Below, in pieces: positions 51,513 to 55,833 of a stretch of DNA of 64,000 nt. The stretch is from Bacilli bacterium (GTDB lineage: Bacteria > Bacillota_I > Bacilli_A > RF39 > UBA660). How positions within the stretch are numbered: position 1 is the first letter of the stretch; every line of letters starts with the position of its first letter. The notes beneath the pieces were generated by a model, which was not told the DNA's origin, did no database searches, and saw nothing but the letters and a program-made list of their open reading frames with translations. Location of the stretch: positions 176,468 to 240,467 of the forward strand of contig CAAGEE010000002.1 of NCBI GenBank assembly GCA_900768815.1. The letters run 5' to 3'. The position numbers and the translations under genes are program-made.

Positions 51513-51698
51513 TTATATTTTTATTTTAACACATTTTTTAACTTTACCAAACCTAATACAATATGAGAAAAAGTTTTTATGCTTTTTTCCTAGAATTTTG
51601 TCAATTTCATTAGCGACTTTTACATTTTTCTCTCGATCATCAAAGAAGATAGTCTCTTCTTTTTTACGTAGTAGTAAAATCTTTTCATTTATATTCAT
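51513..51698 (-). pseudogene. Probable remnant of an XRE-family membrane regulator paralogue
   Basis: MNINEKILLLRKKEE resembles the N-termini of the 55255 and 60951 genes. It is preceded by the same promoter/dyad element. Confidence 0.4.
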
Positions 51699-51734
51699 AA
51701 GCTTTCCTCATTTTCACTTTTAAGTATATCAAAA

Positions 51735-51765
51735 CCAATTTATTTGTCTAGCAAATGTCTTTGGA
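51735..51765 (-). promoter_or_regulatory. Promoter with a 19-nt spacer and embedded dyad, copy 2 of 4
   Basis: On the minus strand it reads TTTACA-aacttCCAAAgacaTTTGc-TAGACA. Confidence 0.45.
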
Positions 51766-51804
51766 AGTTTGTAAAAGTTATTTGGCAGTTAGTAAAGAAA
51801 TTAT

Positions 51805-54270
51805 TTATTCTACGTTTTTTAAGGAAGAGACCATATTGATCTTTTTTAGGTTATAATGAGTTACTATATTTACGATGATTGTAAAAATAATAGTCATTAA
51901 AGCTGATAAGATGTAGCTAATTGTGTCAACTCTCCTATCAAATAATAAATAGTCTGGTTCACAAGTTGAAATAATATAATGACATAAGTATGAACCGGAT
52001 AGTAGACCTAGTGTAATACCAATAGCAGTTAGAATAATAGTTTCTCTAGTTATATATCTATCAACTTCACGAGGATAAAAGCCTAGAACTTTTAGAGTAG
52101 CAATTTCCCTTTTTCTTTCACTTATATTAATATTAGATAAATTATATAAAACAACAAAAGCTAGTAAGGCTGCTGCAACTATTAAAATGGCAACTATTGA
52201 GCCAATTGATCCGATTATATCGTTCATAGTATTTTTCATATCGATGTTATTTACAATAGAAGTTATTTCACTTTTACTAATGTATCCTTCATCAAAATTA
52301 TTTTTTTCTTTGGCGCTTACATTATTTAATTTTACAAGATAAGAATTTGTTTTATAGTTGCCAAAGATCTTTTCATAAGTTGTTTTTGATAAATATAAAT
52401 ATTGGTTTATGTAGTTCTTGACGATTTTGTCAACTTTTACTTGGTGTTTTTTATTGTTATCATCTAAGATTGTTATTTTATCTCCTACTTTGATGTTTAG
52501 TAGTCTAGATGTTTTTTCACTGATTATACAAGTGTTATCTTTAGGAGTAAGATTTTCTTTTTTATTGTCACTTACGTCTATTAGATTGATAACTTTTTTC
52601 AATTCTTTGCTTACCTCTGGAACGATTATAGTTACTTCTTGTTCTTTTTTATTATAAGAGATAGTAACAGTATTAATATTTGTTTCAACTACTTCTTTAA
52701 CGATAGGGTTGTTTAGTAGTTCATTTTTTAAAGTACTTGTATTTGCTGTTTCACTTAGCATTAGCATTTTATCGTATTTAAAAATATTAGTAAATTGAAA
52801 ATTATTAATACCTTTTATGGAGTCTCTTAGACCAAACCCAGTTAATATTAGAGCTGTACAACCAGTAATACCAATTATGGTAGTTAGAACTCTACTTTTA
52901 TATCGAAAGATATTTCTGATGGTTATTTTACTAGAAAATTTTAATCTTTTCCAAATAAAAGTTATGTGTTCTAGAAGAATCTTTTTACCTGTTTTAGGTG
53001 CTTTAGGACGCATTAGATTAGCTGGTACATCTTTTAAGTTTTTAATACAAACAAAGATTGCCGTACCACAGATACAAATAATACAAATTAATAGTCCAAT
53101 TATATTAGCTGATGTATCAATATCACAAATAAATTTTGGAATGGTAAACATAGTTTTGTAGGCATTCCAAACAACTCTTGGGATAAGTAATGAACCCATA
53201 ACTATGCCTAAGAAACCTCCTATTACAGTTGCAAACAAGGAATAAATTATGTATTTTGATGTTATTTGGAAATTGTTAAAACCAAGTGACTTTAGAGTAC
53301 CATTTTCAGTTCTATCTTCTTCAATCATGCGCATCATAGAAATTAGACTTACTAAAATAGCGATACAGAAGAAAATTATAGGGAAAACATTACCTATTTG
53401 TTTTAGATTTTCACTACCGTTGATAAGTTCTTTGTAAGAATTATTGTCTGTTCTATCAAAGATATACCACTTAGGATTTGTAAGAGCTGTTTTGTCTAGA
53501 GGTATGTTGTATGTTTCTGCTTGTTTGATAATGTCACCATATAGTTCATCATACCTAGCAGTTTCTCTATCTTTTTTTATTTTTTCAATATTAGTGGTTG
53601 CTTTTTCAATACTCTTTTTATACTCTTTACTGTTAGTTATTTTGTCTTTAGCGCCTTTTATGGTTAGATAGACATTGGTATAAACATCTTGTTTTATATT
53701 ATTTTCATTTAAGTATATAAGATAATTTACTTTACCATTTCCAAGTGTAGCACTTGGTCTTTCATTACTAAAATATAGTGGACTTATCATAGTACCAACT
53801 ATTTTATAGTTATTATTCTCGATGTTGATGCTGTCATTTATCTTTAGTTTATTATCTTCTAGTAAGGCTTTTTCTACTACTATTTCATTATTGTTACTTG
53901 GTAGTCTTCCTTCTTCTAGATAGACGTTATTTATTTCTTTGTTTAGACCAATTAGTTTTAAAACATACTGTTTATTGTTAAGATTTAAGTAAGCATCTTT
54001 AGAGTATGTTCCAACTACTTTTTCAATATTTTTGACTTTTGATAGTTCTTTGACATCTTCTTTGGTCAAGCCTAAGTTAGAGACAACTTCGATGTCATAA
54101 ACATTATTTTCATCATAGAAGTTATCAAGTGTTTTAATCATGTCCGGACTAGCCGCTTGAATTCCAGCATAAAAACCTACTCCGAGTAAAGCCATGCAAA
54201 GTAGTGATAAAAATCTTTTATAGTTATCTTTTATTTTCATAAAGATGTGTTTTAATAATTTATTTTTCAT
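51805..54270 (-). CDS. FtsX-family ABC permease of the MacB type, with a duplicated FtsX module
   Basis: The ORF is 821 aa with two four-TM bundles, each preceded by a large extracytoplasmic domain. It overlaps the upstream ATPase gene. Confidence 0.7.
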   Translation of the reverse strand: MKNKLLKHIFMKIKDNYKRFLSLLCMALLGVGFYAGIQAASPDMIKTLDNFYDENNVYDIEVVSNLGLTKEDVKELSKVKNIEKVVGTYSKDAYLNLNNKQYVLKLIGLNKEINNVYLEEGRLPSNNNEIVVEKALLEDNKLKINDSINIENNNYKIVGTMISPLYFSNERPSATLGNGKVNYLIYLNENNIKQDVYTNVYLTIKGAKDKITNSKEYKKSIEKATTNIEKIKKDRETARYDELYGDIIKQAETYNIPLDKTALTNPKWYIFDRTDNNSYKELINGSENLKQIGNVFPIIFFCIAILVSLISMMRMIEEDRTENGTLKSLGFNNFQITSKYIIYSLFATVIGGFLGIVMGSLLIPRVVWNAYKTMFTIPKFICDIDTSANIIGLLICIICICGTAIFVCIKNLKDVPANLMRPKAPKTGKKILLEHITFIWKRLKFSSKITIRNIFRYKSRVLTTIIGITGCTALILTGFGLRDSIKGINNFQFTNIFKYDKMLMLSETANTSTLKNELLNNPIVKEVVETNINTVTISYNKKEQEVTIIVPEVSKELKKVINLIDVSDNKKENLTPKDNTCIISEKTSRLLNIKVGDKITILDDNNKKHQVKVDKIVKNYINQYLYLSKTTYEKIFGNYKTNSYLVKLNNVSAKEKNNFDEGYISKSEITSIVNNIDMKNTMNDIIGSIGSIVAILIVAAALLAFVVLYNLSNINISERKREIATLKVLGFYPREVDRYITRETIILTAIGITLGLLSGSYLCHYIISTCEPDYLLFDRRVDTISYILSALMTIIFTIIVNIVTHYNLKKINMVSSLKNVE

Positions 54271-54271
54271 A

Positions 54272-54982
54272 TTACCACTCGATTTCTTCTATGTCTTTTG
54301 GTTTTTTATTGATAATAACATCTGCAGTTGCTCCATTTTTAAATTTAATAATTTTATCGGCCATAGGACTAATTGCAGAATTATGAGTAATAATAACGAC
54401 TGTCATATTTTCTTTACGACAAGTGTCTTGTAGTAGTTTTAGGATTTGTTTACCTGTTTTATAATCTAGTGCTCCAGTTGGCTCATCACAAAGAAGTATT
54501 TTAGGATTTTTAGAGATGGCTCTAGCAATCGCTACACGTTGTTGTTCACCACCAGATAGTTGAGCAGGAAAGTTACTTTTTCTATTTTCTAGACCAACAT
54601 TATCTAGAATTTTATTTGGATCTAGATGATCTTTACATAACTGAACGGCAAGTTCGACATTTTCTAAGACTGTCATATTTTGAATTAGATTATAGAATTG
54701 GAAGACAAAACCTATATCATTACGACGATACTTAGTTAACTCTTTTTCATTTAATTTATTTATAATCTTACCGTCTACAATTACTTCACCGGATGTTAGA
54801 CGATCCATTCCTCCTAGAATATTTAAACAAGTAGTTTTACCGGCACCAGAAGGGCCTAAAATGCAGACTAGTTCTCCCTTTTCTATTTCAAACGAAGTAT
54901 TATTTAAAGCATTTATTTCAACTTCACCCATTTTATAAATTTTATTAACATTTTTAAACTCAATATATGCCAATACTATCAT
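54272..54982 (-). CDS. ABC transporter ATP-binding protein (MacB-type partner)
   Basis: It has [18 protein letters not shown] and [11 protein letters not shown]. The true start may be the TTG 9 nt inside, which is better spaced from the SD aaggag. Confidence 0.8.
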
Positions 54983-55254
54983 CTCCTTTTTTAGAATGTT
55001 CTAATATAAAGTGTTTTTAATAACAAATTATTTTTATATACTCTTCATCCTTTATATAATCATATTCTCTTTAATATCTGCATTAAATACTATATTCATT
55101 TATATTATATAACATTTTCTTTACTTTTAATAGATACTTTTTGTTCTAAATGTTTGTACCAATAATACTATTTATCTTATACTTTTGTTAATTCATTTTT
55201 ACATATAAAAAACAGACGTAAAAATTTATTTTAATAAAACATCTGTTTATTTTA

Positions 55255-55833
55255 TTACTTTTCTATAAGACAAGAACCGTTGTGTTCTTTAAAATAGTCT
55301 TCTACATTAGCAACAGCTTTATTAGCATCATCATATGAGTCTACATCTGTATGATTATAAATCCAAGCATCTCCACCAGAATTTATTACTTGATAGTTTT
55401 TATTGTATTCTATACTATATGAATATTGTTTCTTATCTATTTTACATGTAAGAACGTATTTTCCAACTACTTTATTACTCTTAGAATTAGTGTTAATATT
55501 AAAGATGATGAAAACCAGTATCTCAATTATAACTAAAACTAATAGACCAATTCCTACTACTTTTAAAATTTTAATGATTATGCCTGCAAGTTTTTCAGTA
55601 TTACTAACCTTCTCCACTAAAATACTGTTTATGTCGTTATTAGTTAATTCATCCAGACTGACTTTGAATATTTCTGATAAAGCTTTAGCTTGTTTGATAT
55701 CTGGAGCAGTCTCTTCCAATTCCCATTTTGAAATGGTTTGTCTAGTCACGCCTACTTTCTCAGCTAATTCTTCTTGTGAAAGATTATTTTTCTTTCTTAA
55801 ATTTACTATCTTCTTTCCTAAATCCATATTCAT
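55255..55833 (-). CDS. Membrane-anchored XRE-family HTH regulator of 192 aa
   Basis: The HTH LRKKNNLSQEELAEKVGVTRQTISKWE is followed by one TM, IIKILKVVGIGLLVLVIIEILVFIIF, and a ~75-aa extracytoplasmic domain with two Cys. Confidence 0.65.
   Translation of the reverse strand: MNMDLGKKIVNLRKKNNLSQEELAEKVGVTRQTISKWELEETAPDIKQAKALSEIFKVSLDELTNNDINSILVEKVSNTEKLAGIIIKILKVVGIGLLVLVIIEILVFIIFNINTNSKSNKVVGKYVLTCKIDKKQYSYSIEYNKNYQVINSGGDAWIYNHTDVDSYDDANKAVANVEDYFKEHNGSCLIEK

Follow-up and report, generated by a model that had tools for sequence, protein, structure and literature searches.

The commonest DNA-binding domain of transmembrane transcription regulators is the helix-turn-helix (HTH), and the commonest topology is single-pass (56%) (PMC10269533). 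Among them, BcrR is a membrane-bound DNA-binding regulator that stands with an ATP-binding cassette (ABC) exporter in the bacitracin resistance locus of Enterococcus faecalis (PMC10269533, citing Manson 2004 and Gauntlett 2008). In Staphylococcus aureus, the gene for AyrR is located upstream of ABC transporter genes, and the AyrR operator overlaps the -35 region (PMC4542188). On the exporter side, permeases of the BceB type possess 10 helices, have a single ectodomain inserted between the seventh and the eighth, and have co-evolved with a two-component system (PMC5985334). On the outer face of the membrane, SEAL domains cleave themselves at an Asn-Pro hairpin that is conserved among them, and they act as the gate to intramembrane proteolysis (PMC10556640, PMC10328401). 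Here we describe a locus on a 64,000-nucleotide stretch of contig CAAGEE010000002.1 from an RF39 Bacilli bacterium (the whole stretch is hereafter referred to as the window; G+C content about 27%). The window matches at 99% the scaffold HF992499.1 of Mycoplasma sp. CAG:877, a gut Bacilli bacterium known without culture. On the minus strand of the window, the gene for a single-pass XRE regulator, designated XRE-TM, is followed by the genes for an ABC ATPase and a tandem MacB-type permease and then by a decayed second XRE gene.

In the first-pass annotation these genes had been combined into one minus-strand module, and it had been considered unusual to find an XRE regulator with a membrane span in this position beside an exporter. 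The latter point did not stand, because BcrR provides a precedent (PMC10269533). As to the module, the order of XRE-TM, ABC ATPase, permease and second XRE gene is indeed common to close relatives, but the functional unit was not sustained: a hairpin follows XRE-TM and the neighbours are not conserved, which are largely the two observations that had been named beforehand as speaking against it.

Organization of the XRE-TM locus

The gene identities proposed in the first-pass annotation were correct, and all the minus-strand open reading frames (ORFs) were present at the coordinates given there, with two start codons to be revised. The XRE-TM gene (55255..55827, minus strand) encodes 190 aa from ATG 55827, although the open frame reaches 55833. 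ATG 55827 is most likely the start, since homologues begin with M-N/D-L-G, the spacing to the ribosome-binding site (RBS) is proper, and the protein is called as 190 aa in relatives. The ABC ATPase gene (54272..54973, minus strand; listed ORF 54272..54982) encodes 233 aa from TTG 54973, most likely the true start because ATG 54982 forms part of the RBS, within its GGAG box, and does not keep the reading frame in locus L091; the conserved start of this protein is a TTG or ATG just before A-Y-I-E-F.

This arrangement probably represents three independent units set side by side in a recombination-prone region, as judged from the sequence comparisons below. The first unit would be a monocistronic gene for a membrane-tethered XRE regulator, driven by a family-specific element and ended by its own terminator. 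The second would be a self-contained two-gene exporter operon, in which ATPase and tandem MacB permease are translationally coupled, probably with its own promoter in the 281-nt spacer, and its two genes stay together in many relatives whatever their neighbours. The third is what is left, at the 5' end, of a defunct second XRE gene, from which one deletion or replacement event removed all that followed codon 14. Regulator and exporter would thus be transcribed separately, and the order of the units is inherited within a narrow clade, in a region prone to insertion, deletion and recombination.

Viewed from the regulator, the permease was found downstream of an XRE-TM homologue in only one of 80 species loci, the source genome's own (L009), and the 79 other species were without it. 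In the loci with XRE-TM at 72% identity (L100/L101), VanZ is still upstream and no ABC genes are downstream; at 68% identity, two unknown genes come next. For the paralogue XRE-TM2, also located in the window, the next gene on the same strand encodes a GNAT/YoaP acetyltransferase (60148..60891) and no transporter. Clustering of the ORFs within 3 kb in 79 loci gave no neighbour family in more than 14 of the 79, the commonest being another XRE gene, and the search for a conserved operon partner of XRE-TM in these loci thus ended without a candidate. The second commonest family (13/79) has the look of a large serine recombinase, as far as its N-terminal sequence, the only part inspected, can tell. 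Pfam analysis of ten downstream genes identified functions unrelated to each other: ABC ATPase, SUFU, queuosine synthesis, RsgI_M plus PepSY, or nothing. Viewed from the exporter, pairs at 63-69% identity are located among PBP/L33/EF-P genes, DUF5301/tRNA synthetase genes, or sortase/VWA genes, and no XRE gene was found near them. The adjacency is limited to one clade, in which XRE-TM is at least 76% identical.

Within this clade, regulator and exporter differ in their degree of similarity. In comparison with L089, XRE-TM and its flanks are 98.5-100% identical, while the ABC gene and permease are 92% identical, falling to 82%. The opposite was found with L003: XRE-TM, by itself 85% identical, and its flanks are at 81-87%, while the exporter block (51647..54987) is at 95-99%, from the ABC start codon to the promoter and first codons of the decayed XRE gene. 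Such mosaic identities imply that lineages have recently exchanged the exporter block by homologous recombination, and that this block has done so independently of XRE-TM.

The candidate hairpin indicated in the first-pass annotation at about 55211..55250 was borne out at 55211..55247 (minus strand), 8 nt past the XRE-TM stop, with a 9-bp stem, a loop of about 19 nt and a following UUUUUU run (-10.7 kcal/mol; z = -2.3). L089 has this terminator-like hairpin without any change, and in L003 the stem persists with one U.G changed to U-A. Hairpins of this kind were found after 32 of 78 family genes, but after only 1 of 78 shuffled controls. The full gap between XRE-TM and the ABC start is 281 nt, and the spacer ahead of the ABC genes (54974..55210, minus strand) has sigma-70-like matches of its own, TTAACA-18-TATTAT at 55191..55162 and ATGTTATATAAT near 55110. 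The XRE promoter element, searched with up to two mismatches in 54983..55254, gave no copy. In L003 the spacer (8778..9005) includes a 75-aa ORF with a weak DUF2812 match in Pfam, and the window aligns only to part of the start of this ORF; in L096 the spacer (1646..2674) includes the gene for a 342-aa predicted lipoprotein without Pfam match. When the entire window was scanned against Rfam at gathering thresholds, nothing was detected, and therefore no riboswitch or leader in the spacer.

Several observations weigh against the independence of regulator and exporter. The hairpin is weak, with a long loop and an A/U-rich stem, so that read-through into the ABC genes is possible, and an operator of different sequence might be present in the spacer. 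In all seven loci with XRE-TM at least 76% identical (L003, L009, L089, L096, L097, L098 and L099), the exporter follows on the same strand, while the upstream neighbour of XRE-TM varies (3HCDH, cation ATPase, or GNAT plus a 150-aa gene); this linkage is then more persistent than the surrounding genes. There are, furthermore, precedents of XRE regulators controlling ABC exporters in BcrR (PMC10269533) and AyrR, the latter being an XRE repressor that acts on the ayrRABC operon and thereby on its own gene (PMC4542188). These points would fit a module of the BcrR kind, in which XRE-TM senses an envelope-active compound and controls the exporter through read-through or through an unrecognised operator in the spacer. 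Such control is unlikely, however, given that the spacer lacks the family operator and tolerates the insertion of a 342-aa gene, that the association disappears outside the clade from either side, that the exporter block recombines on its own, and that paralogues with the same promoter adjoin unrelated genes. Altogether, the sequence comparison yielded nothing that would tie the regulator to the exporter, and the reading as three separate units is retained as the most likely one. The result is mainly corrective in that the gene order of a reduced, recombining genome made a look-alike of a regulator-exporter module, which annotation pipelines and regulon predictions should not carry forward.

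Conserved promoter/operator element of XRE genes

The "special promoter" noted in the first-pass annotation proved to be real. With no more than one mismatch allowed, the 26-nt pattern ACAAAYTTCCAA-N6-TTGGTAGA has three copies in the window (23940-65, 51747-72 and 61560-85), in comparison with 0.02 copies expected, and the three copies precede the decayed XRE gene, XRE-TM2 and a 536-aa XRE protein. The XRE-TM gene bears the element version of the other subfamily and not the 26-nt pattern; its promoter/operator element (cTTGTTAAgaataaTTGCGaAAgTTCCActgattaTTGGTAGA; 55874..55917, minus strand) matches the family consensus. XRE-TM2 (60951..61511, minus strand), which is 47% identical to XRE-TM over the whole length, has its element at 61560..61603 and a TATAAT 24 nt ahead of the ATG, and the TTG start at 61535 given by the ORF tool is an artefact. 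The gene for the 536-aa protein (22282..23892, minus strand; element at 23940..23983) encodes an N-terminal XRE HTH with five predicted membrane spans, and since this five-span protein carries the same element, the element is common to XRE proteins of differing membrane architecture.

The consensus, for which 69 unique upstream regions were taken from homologues of about 80 species, is aAaTGTTAA-N6-TtGcg.AA.TTCCA-N7-TTGgTAGA, or in summary form TGTTAA..TTGCG.AA.TTCCA-N7-TTGGTAGA. Downstream of it are located a TAtaaT-like -10 (often with TG) 21 nt past TTGGTA, then GAAAGGAG and the start codon. TAnnWT was present at this 21-nt offset in 44 of the 69 unique upstream regions. For XRE-TM, the likely -10 hexamer at this distance is TATATT, extended by TG (55849..55854, minus strand). 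The core TTCCA-N7-TTGGTAG gave 55 matches in 921 kb of fetched sequence, whereas about 0.08 would be expected from an estimate based on base composition. An XRE-HTH signature was located downstream of 53 of these 55, and the remaining two, in L022 and L023, precede the XRE-TM match of their locus by about 70 nt. The element was thus seen ahead of XRE genes only.

With respect to symmetry, the check for dyads and direct repeats showed CCA-N9-TGG alone to be general, and longer palindromes (GTCTTTG-N9-CAAAGAC) are confined to subfamilies of the element. Comparison by eye with the consensuses of alternative sigma factor promoters and with LytTR sites gave no convincing match. In the simplest reading, the XRE proteins would bind their own element and thereby autoregulate, and the paralogues may cross-regulate each other through it. 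The element also offers a direct handle for computing the regulon in complete genomes.

Decayed second XRE gene and the variable islet

The remnant downstream of the permease had been described as a decayed XRE regulator gene with its own promoter, and as a hint of a former tandem duplication of the regulator. The first part was confirmed, since upstream region, RBS and 14 codons match an intact gene in L003. The surviving coding part (51657..51698, minus strand) consists of 14 codons, MNINEKILLLRKKE, with residues identical to those of the intact gene, and its promoter/operator (51747..51790, minus strand) is one mismatch away from the XRE-TM2 copy. The rest of the 61-aa ORF (51513..51656, minus strand) has no relation to the XRE gene, to which it became joined through the deletion or replacement; the ORF as a whole (51513..51698) has no Pfam match. 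The alignment between the window and L003 spans the intergenic region, the element, the RBS and exactly 14 codons, and similarity then ends. Because the breakpoint is common to the window, L099 and L097, a single event must have truncated the gene. The L099 copy differs by about 2 mismatches over about 330 aligned bases, while XRE-TM there is just 76% identical.

The intact counterpart, located at the same place in L003 (12601..13038), is a 145-aa HTH_3 gene overlapped by the gene for a 104-aa membrane protein. The 145-aa protein is soluble, without membrane span, and shares with XRE-TM only the HTH (64% identity over 64 residues). The tandem duplication therefore fails, and the remnant was ruled out as an XRE-TM copy: its intact homologue differs in architecture, and it is a paralogue of the DNA-binding domain. 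The intact two-gene unit was seen at L003 12601..13352, L096 6567..7318 and L098 7242..7993; the stop of the 145-aa gene overlaps the start of the 104-aa gene, and the 104-aa protein has an N-terminal hydrophobic stretch. This unit could be a split counterpart of the single-chain layout of XRE-TM.

Given this position, the decayed gene with its 104-aa partner might once have been the cognate regulator of the exporter, the loss of which would leave the exporter constitutive or unregulated here. The intact pair is indeed located downstream of the permease, directly in L003 and L096 and behind a 208-aa gene in L098, and the L003 block of 95-99% identity covers the whole interval from the ABC start codon through the remnant's promoter and first codons. 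We consider a cognate role very doubtful, however: the gene sits downstream of the exporter with a promoter of its own, is absent beside the exporter pairs at 63-69% identity, and is missing or cut short in the window as well as in L089, L097 and L099, all of which retain the exporter, and the 208-aa gene of L098 intervenes between permease and pair.

The remnant belongs to a variable islet (48349..51793) that is absent from the near-identical relative L089, which is 99% identical to the window beyond the islet and reaches about 98-100% identity in the genes that precede the exporter. Its other members are the genes for a 194-aa membrane-anchored protein (50891..51475), a 67-aa DNA_binding_1 (methylated-DNA methyltransferase) fragment (50528..50731), a 270-aa N/Q-rich membrane protein (49644..50456, plus strand) and a Fic protein (48312..49514). 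This 3.4-kb islet looks like a hotspot of gene flux with several pseudogene remnants, and the downstream side of the exporter is an islet that differs in every lineage of the clade.

Tandem MacB-type exporter

The ATPase is an ABC_tran protein (E 2e-35), for which the closest NCBIfam models are LolD, DevA and the MacB-type nucleotide-binding domain (E 1e-55 to 1e-63), all scored under the equivalog cut-offs. The permease (51805..54270, minus strand; 821 aa) has two FtsX stretches (PF02687, 107.6 bits) and two MacB_PCD stretches (PF12704, 54.9 bits), organized as [TM1-ectodomain-TM2-4] and then [TM5-ectodomain-TM6-8], where TM is a transmembrane helix. Hydropathy analysis gave eight segments and a polar linker at 409-460, although by this crude method linking helices of the YbbP type, which would make ten, could be missed. 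With FtsX domain, MacB-like ectodomain and LolD/MacB-like ATPase, the pair belongs to the MacB (type VII) superfamily, and with two MacB units in one polypeptide, each with an ectodomain, the permease is YbbP-like. Among 8000 candidates scored, 5376 database proteins are related to it at E <= 1e-10, and the sole solved relative by sequence is YtrF (E 4e-4). By analogy with the family, the substrate would be at or outside the membrane.

A two-component partner had been taken as the rule for such exporters, but this premise applies to the BceB type (PMC5985334), and the permease here is a tandem MacB with two ectodomains, for which such a partner is not expected. The assignment as BceAB was rejected on account of the two MacB_PCD stretches, the prediction of eight helices, the first and fifth of which lead into ectodomains, and the absence of two-component genes: no HisKA or Response_reg match was obtained in 48.3-57.6 kb, where the neighbouring ORFs are XRE, 3HCDH, VanZ, the 194-aa membrane protein and Fic.

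Architecture of XRE-TM and its ectodomain

XRE-TM consists of a cytoplasmic HTH of the Cro/C1 type, a membrane span and an extracytoplasmic alpha/beta domain of about 75 aa. The HTH_3 domain (PF01381) occupies residues 11-63 (E 1e-18; 67.5 bits against a cut-off of 23) and has the five-helix repressor fold. In the hydropathy scan a single hydrophobic segment was detected at residues 92-110 (ORF numbering; 19-mer score 3.25), and this membrane segment sits inside one helix, 68-112, of the structure model, which is confident (predicted local distance difference test score, pLDDT, of 89 for the full-length protein). XRE-TM is thus a transmembrane transcription regulator by architecture, with a DNA-binding domain and at least one span in one polypeptide. 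Three intact copies and one truncated copy in 64 kb, together with thousands of database relatives, make up the family, which is a lineage-specific expansion of single-pass XRE regulators of poorly studied, uncultured gut Bacilli.

An XRE fold in a membrane protein may also serve for protein contacts, as in a RodZ-like scaffold, and XRE-TM would then be no transcription factor. This is hardly credible, and the RodZ assignment was rejected: neither the HTH_25-type N-terminus nor the C-terminal DUF4115 domain was matched, the recognition helix VTRQTIS.WE is invariant among the paralogues, each copy is preceded by a conserved DNA element, and several paralogues occur within 64 kb.

The ectodomain, confidently modelled in isolation at pLDDT 93.7, is composed of three strands, two helices and a last strand. 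Of its two invariant Cys, one is in strand 1 and the other at the C-terminus. It belongs to no Pfam family, and its profile matched 130 representative clusters among 1.84 billion, so it is a small and restricted domain family. Ten representatives were scanned: an N-terminal HTH_3 was present in seven, an extra Big_14 after the ectodomain in three (two of these with HTH_3), and in one the N-terminus was weakly Sigma_reg_N (anti-sigma-type) instead of HTH. Variants of this kind are P0302, P0335, P0347 and P0253, some of which are composed of HTH_3, span, domain and a Big_14 Ig-like domain (293-315 aa).

The best structural match of the ectodomain is the juxtamembrane (SEAL) domain of RsgI, and in XRE-TM this SEAL-like fold is likewise placed directly outside the membrane span. 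The scissile Asn-Pro beta-hairpin between strands 1 and 2 is, however, missing from the XRE-TM family: whereas D-I-N-P-S-I is invariant in SEAL proteins, the XRE-TM family has a longer, variable loop with IDKKQY here and LDNEEY as the consensus. Pfam RsgI_M (PF23750) was matched by none of 29 family members at E <= 10, with noise only. At the sequence level, hhalign gave no significant homology, either to a single SEAL protein or to an alignment of 12 SEAL sequences (probability 0.3% and E 0.22 for the alignment). The ectodomain is thus SEAL-like in fold and position, yet no demonstrable member of the SEAL family.

One may speculate that XRE-TMs form an undescribed class of membrane-tethered transcription factors that has expanded in RF39-like gut Bacilli, carrying a divergent SEAL domain devoid of Asn-Pro. 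An envelope signal, perceived perhaps through the invariant Cys pair or through added domains such as Big_14, would lead to shedding of the ectodomain and intramembrane proteolysis, and the HTH so freed would move to the shared 45-bp element within a cross-regulating network of sensors. As a whole this scheme is unlikely. If true, the sensors would cross-regulate as a network and not be dedicated to their neighbouring genes, and in any case the ectodomain is a tractable target for asking whether RsgI-like proteolytic signalling extends beyond anti-sigma factors.

Two arrangements around XRE-TM homologues were also observed. In L026 the gene directly after the homologue (6714..7883) encodes RsgI_M (SEAL) with a weak PepSY and the canonical DINPSI hairpin, an adjacency that could be due to chance or could be functional. 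In a subfamily about 51% identical to XRE-TM (L037, L040, L042, L044-L046 and L070), the stop of the regulator gene is followed after 9 nt by a conserved ORF of about 100 aa, which suggests a real two-gene operon in this subfamily.

Comparison with known systems

BcrR is a precedent with respect to gene position, and the control of bcrABD by BcrR is an experimental result, whereas the comparative evidence here argues against a link. BcrR binds DNA through an XRE-type domain, spans the membrane four times without an ectodomain, and is associated with BcrAB, an ABC-2-type and not a MacB-type exporter. XRE-TM has one span, and its pairing with an exporter is restricted to one clade. AyrR differs from XRE-TM in being soluble, and the ayr genes, with overlaps or gaps of 24 bp between them, form one transcript (PMC4542188), whereas the genes here are separated by the 281-nt spacer with its terminator-like hairpin.

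As to the exporter, a separate ATPase and a single permease chain of two MacB units are shared with the fused MacB systems of the YbbAP/BceAB type (PMC5985334), and the permease resembles YbbP in having two ectodomains. It differs from YbbP in the number of predicted helices, eight versus ten, the two linking helices not being seen in the hydropathy scan.

With RsgI, XRE-TM shares the layout of a cytoplasmic regulatory domain, one span and a small alpha/beta domain just outside the membrane. In some XRE-TM relatives Big_14 lies beyond this domain, as a binding module lies beyond SEAL in some RsgI proteins; XRE-TM itself, unlike RsgI with an extra module, ends after its ectodomain. The equivalent loop of XRE-TM is three residues longer than that of RsgI, variable and without Asn-Pro, and its cytoplasmic part is an XRE HTH and not an anti-sigma domain.

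With the transmembrane regulators surveyed so far (PMC10269533), XRE-TM shares the union of DNA-binding domain and span in one protein, and it differs from them in an ectodomain that falls outside Pfam and within a very small number of sequence clusters. Membrane-tethered XRE regulators are already known (PMC10269533), and the XRE-TM family is an uncharacterised variant of these, whose promoter element is conserved to an unusual degree and whose ectodomain has a fold like that of RsgI.

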